From positions 1 to 11,031 of the forward strand of contig JBBCAX010000113.1 of NCBI GenBank assembly GCA_051382335.1: a stretch of DNA of 11,031 nt. Direction: 5' to 3'. This document shows, one piece after another, positions 1,106 to 10,553 of the stretch; position 1 is the first letter of the stretch, and each line of letters begins with the position of its first letter. Position numbers and translations under genes: made by a program. The notes below the pieces were generated by a model, which saw nothing but the letters and a program-made list of their open reading frames with translations, was not told the origin of the DNA and did no database searches. The DNA comes from Deltaproteobacteria bacterium TL4 (GTDB lineage Bacteria > SAR324 > NAC60-12).

Positions 1106-2878
1106 TTGAGTAGAATTTTAAAACTGTTTTCACAGTTACAACCCGCAACGAAATTATGTGTTGTTCTGTTGATCCTCTTATTTTCTGCAGGATGTGCCCC
1201 AAAAAAAGAGGGTTCTGATGATTCATCAACAAATTCCAAGGATTTAGTTTCCTCTGTGAATCCAGTTTCCCCCTCCGACCCTGAGGCTACACCAGGGTCC
1301 ACTTTTGCCGCGCTTTCTGAGCACAACGCTAACTTTCGCTGTAATTTCCAGTCCGCAACAGCACAAACAAAAGTTCCCCTCACCCGCTATTCCCGTCATG
1401 AGCATCCGCAAGAAGAAGATCGTATTTTGCGCTTATATACCCACGATGTTATCCAAAAGGGCAACCTAAAAGAAACCTTGAGAATCACGACTCAGGATGT
1501 GGTGTACAAGGAAAATCAATTACGCAGCGCAAGTTCAGACCTGATTATCCAGGTTCCAGAAGCGCTTGCTGGAGAAATACCGGAAGACGTACTGAAGCAA
1601 ACCTATGTTTTAACAGAGAAAACACCAACATGTCGAAAAAGTAATCAAACTCCCATTGATCTTGTTTTGGCACAAACTTGCTTGATTTACCAAGAAAGCT
1701 ACCTGTTTTCTGAAAACCTTCCAGACAACTTGGACCTCCTGTTAACCGCTGAAGACTATGTCTTGTATGCACAAAAAAAGGATCCCTATACCTTCTACTA
1801 TGCGGCTCAACAATTTAATGATGAGGTCCTTCCTTCGCTTAAAGGCGAACGAGCAGGAATTGGTCTCAGAGTTGAAGCCGAAGGCGTACTTACCTTAATA
1901 CGCGCGTCATCGACCGTTGTCACGATTAATTCAAACAATCCGTTAATGATCACGGGGAGGCGTTTATTTTCTCATGGCTGGTTTGATGGCTTTCAAAAAG
2001 AGGATCAAATTATGAAAATTGATAACACCTCCATTGAGGGCTTAACCTTTGAGCAGATTGCGCTGTTGTTTCCACACCTGGAGGAACAGACCGGAGTTAT
2101 TGAAGTGAAACGGAACAACACGCTTCTTTCTATCAAAACAACGGCGGCAGAGCATCTCTCTTGTGTGACCAGTGAAGGGATTGCCTACTTAAATGCACGG
2201 CAATTTACCACAGAAACGGGTGTGAGGATTAAAGAACATTTTGATTATTTGACAGCAAACTCATCGACGCCCATAACAAAACTGCTCTTTGATTTAAGGT
2301 ATAATGGGGGCGGCAGTACTAGCGGCGCAAGAGCTCTGGTGGATTATTTGATTGACAGAGACACTCCCGCAAAAACCCATCCTTTAATGATCATAGATGG
2401 AAAGGTCACCAAAAACCAGACGTATTACCTTGGAGATTATAGTCCCAATAACATTGGTGATTTTTCACCGCAGACATTTGTTGTGCTCATGAACGAAGGC
2501 TCTGCGTCTTCTTCGGAAATCACCTTGAATGCCTTAAAAGACTACAAGATTGCCACGCTTTTAGGGGCAAAGAGTTATGGCAAAGGAGTACAGCAATTTG
2601 TATATACCCTTTTTGATAACTCCGGAGTTTTTGTCACTGCAGATTATTTCTATTCCCCTTTGAGAAACACGCATCATGGTATTGGAATTATGCCCGACAT
2701 TTGTATCGATTCTGACATCCTTACGATTTCGCCCAATAATGACCCGCAACTTGCGGCAGCAATGCAATGGCTCACGCAGGGGCAGGTTACCAACGGGAGC
2801 GTGTGTCCGGAAGAAACAGTGCACACGTCCCTGGTAAGAGACCCCCTGTTACAAGTATTTCAAGAACGATCTTTTTAA
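1106..2878 (+). CDS. S41 family (C-terminal processing / tail-specific) peptidase, probable lipoprotein with degenerate PDZ domain
   Basis: Motifs DLRYNGGG, VVLMNEGSASSSE (catalytic Ser), GAKSYGKG (catalytic Lys) and GIGIMPDI. PDZ-like GIGLRV...DQIMKIDN. Lipobox-like LLFSAG-C followed by a Ser/Pro-rich tether. SD GAGGTG at 1095-1100 precedes the TTG start. Confidence 0.9.
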   Translation: MSRILKLFSQLQPATKLCVVLLILLFSAGCAPKKEGSDDSSTNSKDLVSSVNPVSPSDPEATPGSTFAALSEHNANFRCNFQSATAQTKVPLTRYSRHEHPQEEDRILRLYTHDVIQKGNLKETLRITTQDVVYKENQLRSASSDLIIQVPEALAGEIPEDVLKQTYVLTEKTPTCRKSNQTPIDLVLAQTCLIYQESYLFSENLPDNLDLLLTAEDYVLYAQKKDPYTFYYAAQQFNDEVLPSLKGERAGIGLRVEAEGVLTLIRASSTVVTINSNNPLMITGRRLFSHGWFDGFQKEDQIMKIDNTSIEGLTFEQIALLFPHLEEQTGVIEVKRNNTLLSIKTTAAEHLSCVTSEGIAYLNARQFTTETGVRIKEHFDYLTANSSTPITKLLFDLRYNGGGSTSGARALVDYLIDRDTPAKTHPLMIIDGKVTKNQTYYLGDYSPNNIGDFSPQTFVVLMNEGSASSSEITLNALKDYKIATLLGAKSYGKGVQQFVYTLFDNSGVFVTADYFYSPLRNTHHGIGIMPDICIDSDILTISPNNDPQLAAAMQWLTQGQVTNGSVCPEETVHTSLVRDPLLQVFQERSF

Positions 2879-3567
2879 GATTTCTCATCATAAATGGCTT
2901 GGATTTCGTCAGATTCAATTCGGTGGCAGCCCTCGCGTTGTTCCTTGGCGACCTCCAGCATTGAAAACGCGATGGTTTTTGCGTGAATAGGCTTTGCTTT
3001 TTTCAAGGGACCTTTCATGAGTGGAGCAAGCGTTTTCAAGGCCGCAACCCCCCAAGCTTCAAGAATTCTCTTTTCTTCACGTTCTCCTAAAATTATGGAC
3101 GGCTGAAAGATGAGAAGGCTTTCAAAAATAAGCTTTGAAATATCGGATTCCATATCGCCTTTGACTCGATTATAAAAGGTCAAGGATCTTGGATTCGCGC
3201 CTAAAGCGGAGACAACAATAAATTGGCGTACGCCTTGAATTGAAGCAAGTTTGGCCGCTTTTACAGGGTAGGCATAGTCGACTTGGCGGAACGCTTCTTG
3301 GGACCCCGCTTTTTTAAGCGTACTTCCCAAGCAACAAAAAACATCATCTACCTGGAATAACGAGGTGTGCTGCTGTAAGTTGTTAAAATCAACAATGTGC
3401 TCCTCCAGTTTAGGATGCGAGCGTTCTAATTTCCTTCGTCCCAAGACAATGACCTGTTCATAAGCATTATCGTTTAACAGGTAATCCAAGCAATATCCCC
3501 CCACTAGCCCCGTAGCTCCCAATAGCAACGCGGATCTGGCCTCAGTTTTAAAAATTTCTTTTTCCAT
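2875..3567 (-). CDS. NAD(P)-binding oxidoreductase, atypical SDR of the TIP30/CC3 (YraR-like) type
   Basis: Rossmann motif LLGATGLVG, plus DDVFCCLGSTLKKAGSQEAFRQVD, VSALGA and FYNRVKGDME, all typical of this family. Confidence 0.9.
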   Translation of the reverse strand: MEKEIFKTEARSALLLGATGLVGGYCLDYLLNDNAYEQVIVLGRRKLERSHPKLEEHIVDFNNLQQHTSLFQVDDVFCCLGSTLKKAGSQEAFRQVDYAYPVKAAKLASIQGVRQFIVVSALGANPRSLTFYNRVKGDMESDISKLIFESLLIFQPSIILGEREEKRILEAWGVAALKTLAPLMKGPLKKAKPIHAKTIAFSMLEVAKEQREGCHRIESDEIQAIYDEKS

Positions 3568-3617
3568 AAACGACCTTTCTTTTGAGATAAAGTATAGTGC
3601 TCAAGATAAGTTTTGTC

Positions 3618-3740
3618 GGGCTTGGTCGTAAGTTCGGCCATTTTGATGGTAGCCCTGGGTTTCGTCCCAGGGGATACCGCACACATTGTTCCTCGGGGCG
3701 AAACCCGAGGCTACCCCTGGCCGAAGTTAGACCCAAGCCC
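3618..3740. mobile_element. 123-bp MITE with 23-bp TIRs and 8-bp target-site duplication
   Basis: Left TIR GGGCTTGGTCGTAAGTTCGGCCA (3618-3640) versus reverse complement of 3718-3740, GGGCTTGGGTCTAACTTCGGCCA (19/23 identical). Flanked by the perfect direct repeat GTTTTGTC at 3610-3617 and 3741-3748. Confidence 0.85.
3649..3714. repeat. Inverted doublet of GTAG-type REP sequences (REPIN-like)
   Basis: GTAG-CCCTGGG-TTTCGT-CCCAGGG (+, 3649-3672) and GTAG-CCTCGGG-TTTCGC-CCCGAGG (-, 3714-3691), separated by an 18-bp spacer. The stems differ by compensatory changes. Confidence 0.8.
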
Positions 3741-3747
3741 GTTTTGT

Positions 3748-3803
3748 CCTGGGAGCGAGGGCGTCCCGCCCTCCGGTGAGGGCAAGAGGCCCTCGCTCCC
3801 AGG
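3748..3803. repeat. GGAG-type REP-like hairpin doublet inside the outer MITE
   Basis: CCTGGGAGC-GAGGGC-GTCCC-GCCCTC-CGGT-GAGGGC-AAGAG-GCCCTC-GCTCCCAGG: two short hairpins in inverted orientation. Confidence 0.75.
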
Positions 3804-3852
3804 GAAAAAACTTTCCTGGACAGCTATATTATCGGGTGTTCTGATTCCGTTT

Positions 3853-5697
3853 TTAAGGATTTAATTCGAAAAAGTAAGTTTTTACTCCAAATTCTGTTTT
3901 TTCAGTTTTAGGAAGATCAACCGCATCAAAGACACGCAACATTCCGTAATTGTCTGCCAAAACATCAGCTTTCAGTTTGGGAATATGGCAAGACTGGGCA
4001 ATGAACACCAAGCGATCCATTAAATATCTGCCTAATCCTTGGCCCTGCCATTCATCACTCACTTGAAACGCTAACTCCGGAACTCCATCATGTTCGTCAA
4101 TAATCCACTGTCCCATCGCAATGATTTCTTCTTGTTTACTCTCAAGATTGAGCACAATAAGGGACATATTACGTGAATAATCAATATCCACAAAGCCTTG
4201 CAGAACCTGATGTGGGAGAGAACGGAGATGTCTGAAATATCGCAAATAAATACTACGGTCCGATAAGGAGTGAAAGAAATCCCTCACATGATCTTCATCT
4301 GTAGGTTTGACAGGTCGTGCAAGGACTTCTACCCCTTTCTTGGTCTCAAAGACTTCTTCCCACTCAGAGGGATAATGGTGTTTGAAATAATATCCGGGCT
4401 GCTTCTCACTGATATAATGATTTTGTTTTGCGGCCTGCAGCAATTTATCTCTAAAATCAGGGTGAGCAATCTCTATCAAGCCAAGACAGCGCTCTCGTAT
4501 ATTTTTACCATAGACTTGAGCCACACCATATTCTGTCACAACACTGTCAACTTCGGCTCGGGTTACCACAACCCCTGAGCCTGGTTTTAAAGAAAAAACA
4601 ATACTCGAAGTTTTGCCTTCATTTCGAGTTGAGGGTAATACCAGAAATGACCGTCCACCTTCCGATAACATAGCGCCCCTAACAAAATCAAGAGTTCCGC
4701 CAAAGCCGCCATAAAACTCGTGCCCCAACGATTCTGAACAAACTTGCCCCGTAACATCCACTTCGTGTGCATCGGCAATGGCTATCATATTAGGATTCGC
4801 GCCAATATTGTCCCAGTTATTGACATAAGTCAGAGGATAAAATTCAATATCAGGGTTTCGATTGACAAATTGATAGAGTTCTTGACTGCCTGCAGCATGA
4901 GTAACCACCGATTTTCCTCGATGTCGAATTTTCGTGCTATTATCAATCACTCCACTTTTGATCAGTTCCATCAAGCCGTCATTAAAAATTTCCGTGTGCA
5001 GGCCCAAATGTTTTTTTTGCCTCAAATGAGGAATAACCGCATTAGAGAGAGTCCCTAAGCCCAAACGAATAATGGAACCATCCTCAATTTGGTCGGCGAT
5101 AATCCTTCCAATTTGATCATCGACTTCATTTTTAGCCAGAGGTAGTTGATGGCTAATTAACGGCTCATTACAGTCAATCCAATAATCGATTTGCTCCGAA
5201 TTGATCAATGAGTCCCCATAGGTCCAGGGTAAATGCGTTGTAACTTCCGCAATCACCAACTCCGCTTTTTGAATCATTTCCTTAGTGATATCAACCCCTA
5301 CGCCCAAGCTACACAGGCCTTCTTCATTGGGAGGCGTCACTTTAATCAATGCGACATCAACACGAATTTTCTCTCGTAACACCAACAGCGGAATTCCTGA
5401 AACAGAAATTGGAGTGTAATCACAACGTCCTTCTCTAATTGAATCAAATACGGTATTGTCCACAAAAAAGGTACGTGTACGAAACCGCTTGTGATGTGAC
5501 TCCAGATAATGAGCCGCTTCAAAGTTAATGAACTGAATGATTTCCATATCAACCAATCCATGATTTAGATTCACCATTTCCTCAATCAACGCCTTAGGTG
5601 TCGTTGCGCCATTACCTATGTAGACGTGACTTCCCACAGAAATCATTTCCAATGCTTCTTCAAGACTACGTTCTTTGGCATACCAATCCGTACTCAT
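3853..5697 (-). CDS. Acetyl-CoA hydrolase/transferase family protein fused to a C-terminal GNAT acetyltransferase
   Basis: Family I CoA-transferase motifs GLCSLGVGVD, LGLHTE (catalytic Glu), VDVTGQVCSES, GFGGTLDFVRGA, VVTEYGVA and LIEIAHPDFR. C-terminal Pat-like GNAT: RPVKPTDE..FFHSLSDRSIYLRYF, ELAFQVSDEWQGQGLG, VLADNYGM. SD AAAGGA upstream. Confidence 0.92.
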   Translation of the reverse strand: MSTDWYAKERSLEEALEMISVGSHVYIGNGATTPKALIEEMVNLNHGLVDMEIIQFINFEAAHYLESHHKRFRTRTFFVDNTVFDSIREGRCDYTPISVSGIPLLVLREKIRVDVALIKVTPPNEEGLCSLGVGVDITKEMIQKAELVIAEVTTHLPWTYGDSLINSEQIDYWIDCNEPLISHQLPLAKNEVDDQIGRIIADQIEDGSIIRLGLGTLSNAVIPHLRQKKHLGLHTEIFNDGLMELIKSGVIDNSTKIRHRGKSVVTHAAGSQELYQFVNRNPDIEFYPLTYVNNWDNIGANPNMIAIADAHEVDVTGQVCSESLGHEFYGGFGGTLDFVRGAMLSEGGRSFLVLPSTRNEGKTSSIVFSLKPGSGVVVTRAEVDSVVTEYGVAQVYGKNIRERCLGLIEIAHPDFRDKLLQAAKQNHYISEKQPGYYFKHHYPSEWEEVFETKKGVEVLARPVKPTDEDHVRDFFHSLSDRSIYLRYFRHLRSLPHQVLQGFVDIDYSRNMSLIVLNLESKQEEIIAMGQWIIDEHDGVPELAFQVSDEWQGQGLGRYLMDRLVFIAQSCHIPKLKADVLADNYGMLRVFDAVDLPKTEKTEFGVKTYFFELNP

Positions 5698-5760: not shown

Positions 5761-5793
5761 GGGGTGCGCTCGCTTCGCTTAAACGGCACCTAC
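5761..5793 (-). repeat. Single GTAG-type REP-like sequence
   Basis: Minus strand reads GTAGGTGCCGTTTAAGCGAAGCGAGCGCACCCC: GTAG start, GGTGC/GCACC stem and a GCGAAGC mini-hairpin, forming a GC-rich island in an AT-rich spacer. Confidence 0.55.
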
Positions 5794-5963
5794 CTTAAGC
5801 TTCAAAAGTTAAAAATTAACCCGATGAAAGTATAACAAAGTCGAGGTAAACGAAGTGTTGTTACGATTGTATACCAATTGATGGCAGAAAGATCTAGGAA
5901 ATAGAAAGCGGCTTAGCATGAAAGCGAGTCTTGTTTTTTTTTACGAAATGGATGCTCTTCGAA

Positions 5964-8537
5964 TCAGAATTCAAATCCTGTCAATTCATGATACATCTGT
6001 TGTCCTTCTATGACGAGAGGATGTTTGTCTCCTAAGAGAGAGTAGACTTCTTCCAGTAAAAGTTCCAGGCGATCATCGCAAAGTTCCATGCCCATGATCC
6101 CTTTATAGGACTGAGCCACTTTACGAGGTGTGAGCGTTACTGCTTTTCCTTTGCTCGGAGGTTCCAGGGTCATCCCTTCTAAACTACCAATCGCTTCAAA
6201 AATCGGCCGGACTTTGACAATATATTGCGTAATGATGAGGGACTGAATACTATACTCTATATCACTTTTGTTTAGAAGTTTAAGCATTTCAGGCGATTCT
6301 GCCACTTGTCGAAACTTCGCCACAATTTCTTTCCCTCTCACATCCAGCGCCTCTTCAATTTGAGGTATAAAATAGGGAAGAATTTTTTTAATATTGTCTG
6401 CAGACACGGGGACGTTTGCCAAAGGCAGCAATTTGTTATAGTCCGTAGGCATGCGTCGAAGCGCTTTAACAAATGATTGACGAAACTTTTGCTGATGACT
6501 CGGCTCAATCATCATAATTCCCCATTCAATGAGTCTTAGAAATAAAGGAGGAGGAACGGCCGCTTCAAAAATTTCTTTAAACAATTGACGAAAAATTTCA
6601 ATAAGTTGACGATCTGCGCCCGGAATATCTTTATTAATTTTTTTCCAGCTCAAGCCTTCAAAATAAAAAGGATTTTTTCTTAAAATATCTTGAAAAATAT
6701 GAAACAGGGATGCGGGCTGATTTTGAAGTGATAATTCTCTTAAACGGTCTTCGGGATACTGTTGATACAAATCATGGACTAATTGATATTTTTGAGCACA
6801 TAAATCAACAACACATTCTCGTTCCGCTATGGGAGCATCCACCTCCTTAAGTTCAACTAACTCCTCTGAATTCAATTGATACTCTTCCCCATACGTTTTA
6901 ATGGTTTCCATTAAGCTGAAAATCTTCGTATCAATGTTGATACTGGCCTCAATATCAGCCTGACATCGTGGAAGAAATTCTCTGGGTGATTCTGGTTTCA
7001 AACCTACAGCTTTGGGATCCTTTAATAAACTCCTTCGGTACATATCCAGTTTTTGCATGAACATCTGCTGAGTTTCTTGAAACAGCAACTTTTGTTCACC
7101 TAACTGAGTCAAGGCTTCTTGTCCACTTAATTTACTGTCCGTCAGCTTTTCAAACACATGAACCGCTTGATCTAAGCGGTTTTTCAATTTACCAAATTCC
7201 TGAGCAAGTGCCCCCTGGGCTCCAGGTTGTGCCGTGGATTGGGAGGACTTCTCATGGGATTTAATTACTTCTTTAAAATGGGATTTGGCAACTTCCGGAG
7301 TCGTTTGTTGCTCAACAGGTATTTCAACAGCAGGCATTTGACTCAGAGGTATCTTCTCCCCTAAGCGATTGAAAAAATCCTCGACTGTTGAATTTTCAAA
7401 GTATTGCGCTAAGGACTCGGATTCCTTGAGGATCTCCTTGTTGAAGCCGCAAATATCAGGATGGACTTTCAACAATCTTAATAACTGACTGATCAGTTCA
7501 GACTCATTCGGTAAGCCTTTCACCTTTTTACGAAACGGAATTTGAATTTCTTTTTTTACTTTAAAAGTCATTAAATTGGAAACAAGTGTTGCCGCTTTTT
7601 GAGAATAACCACTCTTTAAAAACATTTCCACTTGATTGGCATCAATCCACTGAACTTGATAAAGATCTGCCAATAAATCAATCACCTGAGAACGTTGTAC
7701 CAATTCACTTTGAATGGCAGATACCTTTTTTTTTCGCAGCTCAATAAATAGTTTTTGATCCAGCAAGCGATATTCGTATAACAAGTCCAATTGACTGATC
7801 ATCATGCTGTTTTTCAGTTGTGCGTCAAACTCATCACCCGACGTTCTCATGATACTTAAATAACACAAGTAACTAAAATCACTCTGAAAGATAAGATGAA
7901 TCAATTCGCTGCCCACTTCAGCCCGACGTCCCAGCACGTGGATGTCATATAAAAGGCTTTTCATGTGTTCATTTAACTGATACTGCTCAGTTCCTCCCAA
8001 ATTATCTTGCAGCAACGCTGGTTTATTTTGCAAGACCTCAATATGATTGAGTAAAGTACTCAATCCTTGATGGTATTGTTCGTCAAACATCAGCGATTTT
8101 TCTGAGACCTGACTCATGGTTTGACGATAATCCTTCACATTGATATTTTCGAGTAAAGGCTTTACCGTTTCTTTGCTCGGATTCATTTGAAAATCGTTGA
8201 TAAAGTGACTTTCACAAAGACCATACAATTGACGGTCCGCACTGAGATGAGCAAGAACATCTTCGCCTAAAATGGCCTGGCCTGTATCCTTAAGTCTTTG
8301 CAATCTGGGTTCTTTAACACTCGGTAAAAGTTCAACCAGTTTTTTTAACTTTCTGACAGGGAGAGGGATTTCAAACTGAGCATCAGATAACTTTTTCAAG
8401 TAAAACGCACGCGTTAAATCATGCTTGAGAACATCAGCAAATTCCTGGATCAAGTCTTCCATGTCTTTAGGAGTTTTAGGATTCGCCGCAACATTATGGC
8501 AATATCGATCAAACAGGTTTTTTAATTCCTCATTCAT
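5964..8537 (-). CDS. Large hypothetical protein (~857 aa), predicted alpha-helical/coiled-coil
   Basis: Long L/E/K/Q-rich ORF with no motif I recognise and no signal peptide or obvious TM segment. Preferred start is the ATG at 8537 (MNEELK), which has SD GAGGA upstream and overlaps the TPR gene stop (ATGAATGA). The ORF track starts it at 8549. Confidence 0.8.
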   Translation of the reverse strand: MNEELKNLFDRYCHNVAANPKTPKDMEDLIQEFADVLKHDLTRAFYLKKLSDAQFEIPLPVRKLKKLVELLPSVKEPRLQRLKDTGQAILGEDVLAHLSADRQLYGLCESHFINDFQMNPSKETVKPLLENINVKDYRQTMSQVSEKSLMFDEQYHQGLSTLLNHIEVLQNKPALLQDNLGGTEQYQLNEHMKSLLYDIHVLGRRAEVGSELIHLIFQSDFSYLCYLSIMRTSGDEFDAQLKNSMMISQLDLLYEYRLLDQKLFIELRKKKVSAIQSELVQRSQVIDLLADLYQVQWIDANQVEMFLKSGYSQKAATLVSNLMTFKVKKEIQIPFRKKVKGLPNESELISQLLRLLKVHPDICGFNKEILKESESLAQYFENSTVEDFFNRLGEKIPLSQMPAVEIPVEQQTTPEVAKSHFKEVIKSHEKSSQSTAQPGAQGALAQEFGKLKNRLDQAVHVFEKLTDSKLSGQEALTQLGEQKLLFQETQQMFMQKLDMYRRSLLKDPKAVGLKPESPREFLPRCQADIEASINIDTKIFSLMETIKTYGEEYQLNSEELVELKEVDAPIAERECVVDLCAQKYQLVHDLYQQYPEDRLRELSLQNQPASLFHIFQDILRKNPFYFEGLSWKKINKDIPGADRQLIEIFRQLFKEIFEAAVPPPLFLRLIEWGIMMIEPSHQQKFRQSFVKALRRMPTDYNKLLPLANVPVSADNIKKILPYFIPQIEEALDVRGKEIVAKFRQVAESPEMLKLLNKSDIEYSIQSLIITQYIVKVRPIFEAIGSLEGMTLEPPSKGKAVTLTPRKVAQSYKGIMGMELCDDRLELLLEEVYSLLGDKHPLVIEGQQMYHELTGFEF

Positions 8538-10338
8538 GGTTTTCCTCACTGGCTTCTTCCGGCTTATCTAAGCTGTCATCCTCATATTTTCCTTCTTCCA
8601 AGTTGGCTAGACGACGACGTTCTGCTTCTTTTTTGTATTGTTTCATACGATTCTTATGTTCCACAATCTTATTATACCGATTGGTGACTTCTTCAATCAT
8701 GCCCATTTGTTTGGTTCGTCGATATAACTCCACCAACTTGAACAGAATTTCTTTCTGTGGATCAATCCGCAGCGCGTCTTCATAGGAACGAATCGCTTTA
8801 TGAAATAAATGATGAGCTTGAAAATTCATGGCTTCTTTAATTTTATTAGCGCATAGACCCAGTTGCTCCCGCTCCCGTTCTTCTTCTTCATAAAGAAAGA
8901 GTTCGTGCTTCCAATGGTAGTGTTGATCATTATTCTTTAACATTTCATAGATTCGGACACATTGCTCCATCGCTTCTTTAGTTCGTTGAAGTTCTAAACT
9001 TACTTCATAAAGCTCTACCGCCTTGGCATATTTCGTATCTCTAAACAGGAGCTCTGCTTGAGTCATCATCTTCTGATGAAGTTCAATAGACCGCTTTTTG
9101 ACCAACTCACTTTCAGGATCAAGATTTTTCATCTTGAAGAAGGTCTGTATTGCTTCTTTATACCGATCCAAATCAAGATAAGTCTTTAACATGCAGTTCA
9201 GTAACCCCATGGTTATTTGTTCGGTCGTGATGACTTCATACATCGCAAGCGCTTTTTCAAATTTTTCTTTTTCATAAAACTCATCCGCAAGCGTACGATA
9301 ATCCTCCAAAGCATAAAAGCCTTCAATCTTATCCACCAGACTTTTACCATAAAGATAATACTTTCTTGAAAGCAAAAATTCCTTCTTTTTTTGGTATAGA
9401 TATCCTAAATTGACGTTGGCATAGCGATTATAGGGGTTATTTCCCAACAAGGTCACCATCATATCAATGGCGAGATCTTTTTTTCCCCTGAGATCATGAG
9501 CCAGAATTAAAAAACATTTATACATGTCATTTTCAGGATCTTTTGAGGATAGACGGGCAAATATTTTCCAAGCGACATGAGCTAAACGATGACTAAGACA
9601 GTAGAATCCAAGAAGCCTCATGTATTCGTGACCTTTTTCGGAATTGAAATCAACTTCTTTTCTGAGATGTTGGAAAATTTCGATCGGAATAATTCGGAGT
9701 TCCCCACCTATGGTCGTCGTTCCGGTCTCAGTTTTTGTTTCCTCTTTTTTTTCCTGACTCTCATTCTCAGGCTCAGGCTCTTTACCCTCCTCGTCATCCT
9801 CCGATGAACTTTTCGCTTCTTCTGAAGGTGCGGCTGTCGCCTTGGCTTCGTTAATGACCATTTGAATTTCTAAAAGCCTTTTGGTCCCTTCCTCATGCTC
9901 AGGCAGTTTATAGGTTTGCATAGCTTCAAATTCAGAAATCGCAGAAACAGCGCTATGGTCATAATAATCAACACGAGCCATTGCCGCAGCCAGATTATAG
10001 GAGGCAAACTTGGTGTTGGGATCAATCTTCAGACAATGCTCATATAGTTTTTCCGCCTGGACATAATCCCCTGATTTGCGATAATTATTTCCAATCAGAT
10101 TCGCAAGTTCAACATCCTTATCATTTTGTTGGAGTAAGTTAGAACCAACAGCAATAACCGCTTGATAATTACCTGAAGAAGAACACACATCAAAAAGCTT
10201 TTTTAAACTGGTAGACGCATATTCTCCTCCAATTTTGATGGCTTTGTTAAACTCGAACATTGCCCGTTCGTAGAGCTTACTTTCCATCAGTTTTTCGCCC
10301 TTGGCAATCAGCTGATTAATCTCTTCTTCTTTGGTCAT
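8530..10338 (-). CDS. Tetratricopeptide repeat (TPR) protein
   Basis: 602 aa with multiple TPR-like helix pairs (LIGNNYRKSGDYVQAEKLYEHCLKIDP, ANVNLGYLY, KAIRSYEDALRIDP), an acidic linker (SSSEDDEEGKEPEPENESQE) and a charged tail. Confidence 0.88.
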   Translation of the reverse strand: MTKEEEINQLIAKGEKLMESKLYERAMFEFNKAIKIGGEYASTSLKKLFDVCSSSGNYQAVIAVGSNLLQQNDKDVELANLIGNNYRKSGDYVQAEKLYEHCLKIDPNTKFASYNLAAAMARVDYYDHSAVSAISEFEAMQTYKLPEHEEGTKRLLEIQMVINEAKATAAPSEEAKSSSEDDEEGKEPEPENESQEKKEETKTETGTTTIGGELRIIPIEIFQHLRKEVDFNSEKGHEYMRLLGFYCLSHRLAHVAWKIFARLSSKDPENDMYKCFLILAHDLRGKKDLAIDMMVTLLGNNPYNRYANVNLGYLYQKKKEFLLSRKYYLYGKSLVDKIEGFYALEDYRTLADEFYEKEKFEKALAMYEVITTEQITMGLLNCMLKTYLDLDRYKEAIQTFFKMKNLDPESELVKKRSIELHQKMMTQAELLFRDTKYAKAVELYEVSLELQRTKEAMEQCVRIYEMLKNNDQHYHWKHELFLYEEEEREREQLGLCANKIKEAMNFQAHHLFHKAIRSYEDALRIDPQKEILFKLVELYRRTKQMGMIEEVTNRYNKIVEHKNRMKQYKKEAERRRLANLEEGKYEDDSLDKPEEASEENHE

Positions 10339-10450: not shown

Positions 10451-10553
10451 TATAGTTGTCCAGATAAATTCCTGCTGAGAGCGCAGGCATCCCGCCTGCT
10501 TTTGCGGGCAAGATGCCCGCGATCCCAGGACAAAACTTTTCTGGAGAAGTATA
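10451..10553. mobile_element. TA-bounded MITE, uninterrupted sister copy (103 bp) with REP-like hairpin doublet
   Basis: Ends TATAGTTGTCCAGA...TCTGGAGAAGTATA (12/14 inverted match). Interior GCAGGC-ATCCC-GCCTGC-TTTT-GCGGGC-AAGAT-GCCCGC-GATCCCAGGACAAAAC is homologous to 3748-3828. Confidence 0.8.

Follow-up and report, generated by a model that had tools for sequence, protein, structure and literature searches.

A MITE within a MITE, each enclosing a REP doublet, in a SAR324 genome

The nested element and its surroundings

The window, by which we mean the whole 11,031-nucleotide stretch analyzed here, comprises positions 1 to 11,031 of contig JBBCAX010000113.1 from Deltaproteobacteria bacterium TL4 (GTDB lineage Bacteria; SAR324; NAC60-12; assembly GCA_051382335.1), a 6.59-Mb genome in 445 contigs that are labeled below in the style C1 to C445 (e.g. 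C281). Between two co-oriented minus-strand genes, encoding an NAD(P)H-binding protein (2875-3567) and a fusion of acetyl-CoA hydrolase with GNAT (3853-5697), lies a composite of a 123-bp inner MITE within a 105-bp, TA-flanked outer MITE. Its parts, and a sister copy elsewhere in the window, are as follows.

3593..3594, no strand: outer TA target duplication, left copy; the unit TA is read from a copy on C135 that interrupts a RAYT gene
3595..3617, plus: left end of the outer IS630-type MITE, which aligns to either end of the IS630-family element found on C180 and C86; the inner element used its final 8 bases as target
3610..3617, plus: inner 8-bp target duplication, left copy, identical to 3741-3748
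3618..3640, plus: inner MITE, left terminal repeat of 23 bp, with the same sequence as the ends of a DUF6399 insertion sequence
3649..3672, plus: first REP hairpin of the inner doublet (family A), tagged GTAG, with matching hairpins on either side of the RAYT gene at C374:489-704
3691..3714, minus: second REP hairpin of the inner doublet, tagged GTAG and in inverted orientation; an inverted-repeat pair by sequence and folding
3718..3740, minus: right 23-bp terminal repeat of the inner MITE, complementary to the left repeat at 19/23 positions
3741..3748, plus: inner 8-bp target duplication, right copy, by identity to 3610-3617
3749..3773, plus: first REP hairpin of the outer doublet (family B), matching the flanks of the RAYT gene at C336:3128-3358 and of RAYT relatives in other phyla
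3778..3802, minus: second REP hairpin of the outer doublet, in inverted orientation, from the inverted-repeat pair, folding and the flanks of RAYT relatives
3804..3826, minus: right end of the outer IS630-type MITE, from the genome-wide family of ends and alignment to the IS630-family element
3827..3828, no strand: outer TA target duplication, right copy, on the same basis (C135 copy) as the left
10451..10553, minus: uninterrupted sister copy of the outer MITE, of another subfamily and with an empty 8-bp target, from direct and inverted repeat matches and folding

Re-reading the sequence confirmed every feature named in a first-pass annotation of this DNA, among them the pairing of the inner terminal repeats and the identity of the 8-bp duplications. 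The outer repeats that it placed at 3593 and 3828 are real, but the outermost TA is a target duplication, since the RAYT flanks of the copy at C135:17285-17389 are in frame only with a single TA, and the element proper runs from 3595 to 3826. When the inner element and one duplication are removed, the remaining outer element is identical (0 mismatches) to a 105-bp copy at C281:7406-7510; it differs by one mismatch from six 105-bp copies elsewhere and by two from seven more. Because the outer element without its insert matches intact copies, the outer MITE came first and the inner second. This bears out the order proposed in the annotation on firmer ground than the empty-site string of the sister copy, which is indeed present on the minus strand at 10524-10538.

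Long pieces of the composite fold far better than shuffles (z-scores of -6.4 to -9.8), as does a family A hairpin unit alone (z -4.2). A single family B unit, tagged GGAG one base ahead of a 6-bp stem, folds no better than shuffles (z -0.12), and its status as a REP therefore depends on its association with RAYT genes. The window gave no Rfam match at gathering scores, and a promoter and terminator scan of it picked up nothing at the doublets, its hits being two weak promoter-like sites (9 of 12) and three that resemble terminators. A weak promoter-like match (9/12) on the minus strand at 3591-3619 points from the outer left end toward the gene starting at 3567. Elsewhere in the window, a decayed single hairpin of another REP family (H), followed by the apparent end of another small element, occupies 5763-5825 upstream of the acetyl-CoA hydrolase gene, and two ORFs (212-973, 253 aa; 5964-8549, 861 aa) have no Pfam match.

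No special significance of the nested, three-level arrangement noted in the annotation is supported: inner copies with repeats on both flanks number 4 of 27, and 9.7% of random non-coding points are so placed. We accordingly set aside nesting as a targeted event, and it looks like chance, an ordinary insertion into repeat-rich intergenic DNA. Other REP-bearing MITEs nested in one another, in either shell order, are found at C253:50875-51215, C182:11028-11281, C423:9374-9537, and C291:35718-36041.

Two shells and the insertion sequences that share their ends

Matches to the inner end number 176 genome-wide, compared with 9 in a base-shuffled genome, and form 51 facing pairs. Thirty of these pairs have an exact 8-bp duplication, at differing sites, so that further copies with target duplications, which the annotation had proposed to look for, do exist. 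The window's doublet occurs in 25 copies of 123 bp (an exact 8-bp duplication flanks 16 of them, one has 7 bp, and eight have none, one of these at a contig end). By mismatches to the window copy they fall into two subfamilies, one at 0-3 and one at 8-15, and six, the window copy among them, are identical. Near-intact 123-bp copies without a duplication (C147:35874, C233:10170, C311:7381, C423:9374, C425:1458, C80:8670, and C96:14103) possibly reflect recombination between copies, adjacent deletion, or misassembly. Two other doublets are found in this shell, a GTAG doublet in 17 copies that are 151-161 bp long and another in a single 307-bp copy; the spacers between end and REP are unrelated from one of these families to another. 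Short, non-coding, and multicopy, with terminal inverted repeats and a variable target duplication, the inner element is a MITE by the usual definition.

The inner end also opens 16 left and 13 right IS termini (29 unpaired ends leading into identical IS sequence), mostly at contig breaks, and the likeness between MITE and IS is confined to these ends, the interiors diverging directly past base 23. The two ends of the IS sit on different contigs and the IS is nowhere assembled whole; its ends are also present in a related genome (G007). Behind them lie ORF pieces of 172 aa (N-terminal) and 209 aa (C-terminal), the latter a DUF6399 domain (E 2.8e-41), and a decayed relative at C291 carries both parts. 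Neither Pfam nor NCBIfam matched these pieces to IS256, ISL3, ISLre2, or ISKra4. Longer DUF6399 homologues, among the 120 listed of 247, are mostly ~559 aa and encoded on ~2-kb, IS-sized contigs. An alignment of 101 homologues has invariant D159, D213, and E484 and a DxxH motif at 233-236.

We used the predicted structure of one homologue, P0003 (pLDDT 88.5), as the fold model rather than the pieces in this genome. It matched the Hermes transposase (Foldseek E 1.3e-5; Z 13.5, rmsd 9.2 over 326 aligned residues, a loose match at full length with TM 0.30), ISCth4 (Foldseek E 5.3e-3), and integrase cores (Z 13.0, rmsd 3.0 over 145 aligned residues). A DUF6399 profile searched against the sequences of solved structures gave chance-level matches only, none below E 0.1. 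The model thus predicts that the DUF6399 protein is a DDE transposase of RNase H fold that has a helical insertion, as the hAT and IS256 enzymes do. hAT and IS256-type enzymes generate target duplications of ~8 bp. Given the shared ends and the length of the duplication, the DUF6399 enzyme probably moves the inner shell in trans. DUF6399 was not mentioned in the literature that we searched, which was mostly outside subscription journals.

Matches to the outer end number 325, compared with 17 in the base-shuffled genome, and form 120 paired shells, 117 of which hold family B cargo in the same place; two others enclose different hairpins, and the interior of another (C3:1526-1657) is not a REP. 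Most of 108 outer copies have TA outside both ends. The copy at C135:17285-17389 interrupts a RAYT gene, and comparison with RAYT N-termini implies an empty site with a single TA. This gene (C135:17050-17600) is broken near its start by the outer MITE and farther on by another REP-carrying MITE. Over ~27 bases the outer ends align with both ends of the IS630-family element and then diverge. That element is present only in pieces (C86, C180, and C311 of the 445 contigs), with a stop between its two ORFs, which score 96.6 and 72.2 bits against NF033545, each under the NCBIfam cut-off of 100. Judging from the shared ends and the TA target, an IS630-family enzyme would be the mover of the outer shell.

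Pairwise identity in the outer family has a median of 78% and a maximum of 100%, and all four haplotypes occur in 614 of 1378 informative column pairs. The outer family is thus old and mosaic, and its mosaicism implies that something beyond plain copying reshuffles it. One 85-bp copy has the same end at both sides (C188:2335-2419). Among 88 genomes of the phylum, this one included and many of them incomplete, the outer MITE was detected in one other, from a different genus (G009), as six matches of a related form.

No empty shells were found, there being no facing ends 20-80 bp apart for either the inner or the outer shell. Both flanks are non-coding for 20 of the 27 inner copies and for 76 of the 106 outer ones.

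REP doublets in shells, beside RAYT genes, and at intron starts

The genome has twelve Y1 transposase matches, and both doublets of the window belong to families that flank such genes, as the annotation had suggested should be checked. Family A, an inverted doublet with GTAG at the hairpin foot, lies on both sides of the RAYT gene at C374, which is truncated (55.3 bits, below the NCBIfam cut-off of 80) and is the sole gene linking this family to a RAYT; no relative of it was confirmed among 139 candidate stretches in metagenomes. The RAYT gene at C336 that is flanked by family B matches NF047646 at 92.1 bits (cut-off 80). This RAYT domain and its flanking hairpins lie in frame within a 1207-aa DUF1156 (methylase-like) gene (C336:2100-4900), where more family B doublets are also in frame, and another RAYT-like domain (C345:9252-9449) lies within a 628-aa frame.

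We compiled a motif-free census of repeats, which found 23 families of at least three copies among 319 repeat regions with inverted ends. Interiors of the inner family matched the C374 RAYT flank in 8 of 8 cases and interiors of the outer family the C336 flank in 41 of 60, whereas five shuffled queries gave single hits. The cargoes of three further shells match RAYT flanks at C135, C302/C414, and C287, so that five shells carry five RAYT-cognate cargoes. Hits of census families 12, 16, and 26 to C135 were set aside, as they reflect a MITE piece inserted in that gene. Eight other census families (4, 11, 20, 22, 28, 29, 52, and 70) are shells whose hairpin doublets match none of this genome's RAYT flanks; some of these doublets may resemble the repeats that accompany GIY-YIG nuclease and GxxExxY genes. 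Three families with terminal inverted repeats (3, 8, and 9, with 16, 8, and 8 copies) have no REP-like core.

Beyond this genome, family B was found near 43 of 80 RAYT-relative loci from many phyla, on both sides in 25, with shuffles reaching at most 2. None of four shell ends, nor family A, matched any of the same 80 loci. The presence of family B at RAYT relatives without the shell ends indicates that it is a hairpin of the RAYT world, to which the shell is a local addition. With GGAG one base before the stem, it lacks a GTAG/GTGG guide at the stem foot; family B works like a REP and is not a canonical GTAG REP.

The locations of the REPs were tabulated for seven cargo families and thirteen shell groups, "free" loci including those in shells outside these groups. 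Among 45 family A loci, 28 are two-sided in the inner shell, two are in another, TA-flanked shell with a different spacer, six are one-sided, seven are free, and two are at a RAYT gene. The 160 family B loci comprise 101 two-sided in a shell, 45 one-sided, 11 free, and three at RAYT genes. Families H (57 of 118 loci) and D (16 of 44) are often free of the tabulated shells, and riding in shells is therefore not universal. One shell may hold several cargoes and one cargo occurs in two shells. The tabulation thus yielded several shell-cargo combinations, with most copies of families A and B inside shells. REPs mostly free of shells, or shells mostly without REPs, would have spoken against the annotation; neither pattern was found, nor was any other outcome that it had named as contrary. 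Its description of two unrelated DDE-type shells, each hardly more than ends around a REP doublet, is supported.

Folding z-scores fell below -4 in 24 of 34 scored shell interiors and in 2 of 150 ordinary non-coding segments; the outer family was left out, a 160-bp family scored z -0.2, and because the census selects palindromic-ended repeats and the shell list was picked by eye, the hairpin enrichment is probably overstated.

Group II introns adjoin some of the shell-borne hairpins. Ten of 11 traced intron 5' ends, of three types, lie within a few bases of a REP hairpin in a shell, seven of them in the outer family, with introns starting just past the hairpin at C103:28864, C222:164, C396:553, C42:112, C147:12722, C431:941, C120:1582, C183:98, C365:388, and C69:1117. 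Rfam confirmed group II domains at two of the three intron loci scanned, and the copy on C103 (~660 nt) is too short for a reverse transcriptase gene. A 5' stem-loop target has been described as unique to group IIC introns (PMC10190682).

Origin of the units and comparison with known systems

The reading that we favor, with a probability of roughly 80%, is that one non-autonomous DDE-type MITE lies inside another and that each consists of IS ends around a RAYT-family REP doublet, likely captured once and likely copied together with its shell in trans. The observations behind it are the ends, the duplications, the copy numbers, the ISs with the same ends, and the hairpin matches to RAYT flanks. 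In this scheme the doublet was captured between IS ends, and the DDE transposase of the corresponding IS would then have amplified it along with its shell. The fixed junctions, the lack of empty shells, and the placement of the duplications at the borders of the shells indicate that shell and doublet move as a unit descended from single founders. The annotation had offered two routes, with REPs either riding DDE-mobilized shells or preferentially inserting into them. Riding is supported; ongoing preferential insertion is not, given the lack of empty shells and junctions that are fixed within a family. We infer that the hairpins are passengers today and hence that most copies of families A and B in this genome derive from DDE transposition, not from RAYT activity. 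For the founding step, palindrome-promoted repair or template switching beside an IS end has about even odds in our estimation. RAYT-catalyzed joining and other routes rank below it, the former seeming rather unlikely. The 85-bp copy with the same end at both sides and the mosaicism of the outer family would fit fold-back or template switching at palindromes.

It is possible, although we lean against it, that the doublet is not neutral and either aids movement of the shell by bringing its ends together or makes insertions tolerable or useful, as terminators or mRNA stabilizers. This is compatible with capture and amplification as a unit. The hairpin-rich interiors of the scored shells, the non-coding flanks of most inner and outer copies, the position of the window element between two co-oriented genes, and the stable folding known of MITE transcripts (PMC10969869) are in line with it. 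Multicopy families with terminal repeats and no REP-like core have nevertheless spread, one outer shell has a non-REP interior (C3:1526-1657), and no U-tailed terminator was found at either doublet.

Alternatively, RAYT (HUH) enzymes could build or refresh the elements by joining single-stranded REP doublets into IS ends or shells, in a two-enzyme relay, which we regard as unlikely. Both outer shell-cargo junctions fall at a CT step common to the IS end and the REP flank, and TnpA-REP cleaves between C and T 5' or 3' of REPs (PMC8266576); the same junction is, however, a 3-4 base microhomology for which no RAYT is needed. The combination of one shell with several cargoes and of one cargo with two shells, the mosaic outer family, and the cognate RAYT genes in the genome would all suit such a relay. 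Against it stand the unrelated spacers of the inner families, the lack of empty shells with junctions fixed within a family, and the state of the cognate RAYTs, truncated at C374 or in frame within the DUF1156 gene at C336. An extension in which this relay is a general factory for mobile families, with RAYTs joining at CT and DDE enzymes amplifying, would make it the main route for REPs where RAYTs have decayed and have the hairpins seed landing sites for group II introns; this too strikes us as improbable.

We consider it very unlikely that the hairpins are inner parts of MITEs and not REPs at all, the free ones being truncated MITEs as proposed for small QMITE2 copies. Many copies are one-sided or decayed and the Coxiella REPs have been read as truncated MITEs (PMC5896051), but families A and B both flank RAYT genes here on both sides, and the presence of family B beside RAYT genes in many phyla without traces of a shell largely refutes the idea for that family. 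A mere chance overlap of abundant shells with abundant REPs, which does hold for the nesting, is scarcely credible otherwise, and is refuted for the shell-cargo unit by the same cargo in the same place in 117 of 120 outer pairs and by duplications that lie at shell borders, not REP borders.

A close precedent is QMITE2 of Coxiella burnetii (Wachter et al. 2018; PMC5896051), a MITE of 150-190 bp with terminal repeats, variable direct repeats of 7-11 nt, and a GTAG REP inside; REP-only copies occur, and a different mobile element lands in the REP. It is a single family, in which the authors read the REP as a truncated MITE, and the term RAYT is absent from the main text of that report; in the present genome several shells and cargoes combine, and IS partners and cognate RAYT genes are both present. 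Type II MITEs (Minnick 2024; PMC10969869) likewise resemble their parent IS only in the terminal repeats and have a stable fold-back structure, and the IS630-derived Correia and RUP elements (PMC2817692) share the TA target of the outer shell. In contrast to these MITEs, the interiors here can be traced to RAYT-associated REP doublets, and the inner parent enzyme was labeled only as DUF6399.

REPIN/RAYT systems (PMC3116915, PMC3733652, PMC6006769, PMC8266576) likewise have tagged hairpins in inverted pairs with a short spacer, flanking Y1 transposase genes. Most copies here are, by contrast, bounded by IS ends and target duplications, so that the unit moved is larger than a REPIN and bears the marks of DDE transposition. 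TIRtrons and TIRYTs (Di Nocera et al. 2013; PMC3733652) similarly link long inverted repeats to tyrosine transposases, and some Pseudomonas TIRtrons join degenerate GTAG units to unrelated stem-loops (PMC3733652). Their repeats flank the tyrosine transposase gene, whereas the terminal repeats here are those of DDE elements and matched 0 of 80 RAYT loci. REP hairpins are also physically linked to the REP-targeting ISs IS1111, IS1594, ISPpu9, and ISPlr1 (PMC3184786, PMC4766695), but these insert into the REP, whereas here the doublet is intact inside the element and insertion sites differ.

The annotation's view of REPs in MITEs as undescribed is therefore only partly upheld. The arrangement has a precedent in QMITE2, and the hairpin nature of MITEs is known; several interchangeable shell-cargo combinations would be the new part. 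In the literature searched, mostly outside subscription journals, no description turned up of REP cargoes that are interchangeable among several shells.

The DUF6399 family is now tied to defined ends and an 8-bp target duplication, and MITE-borne hairpins adjoin the starts of group II introns in this genome. The spread of REPs has been called poorly understood (PMC8266576). Copying within DDE-mobilized shells would provide a second, testable route, for which partner ISs and cognate RAYTs can be identified. REP counts in such genomes may gauge the activity of ISs more than that of RAYTs.
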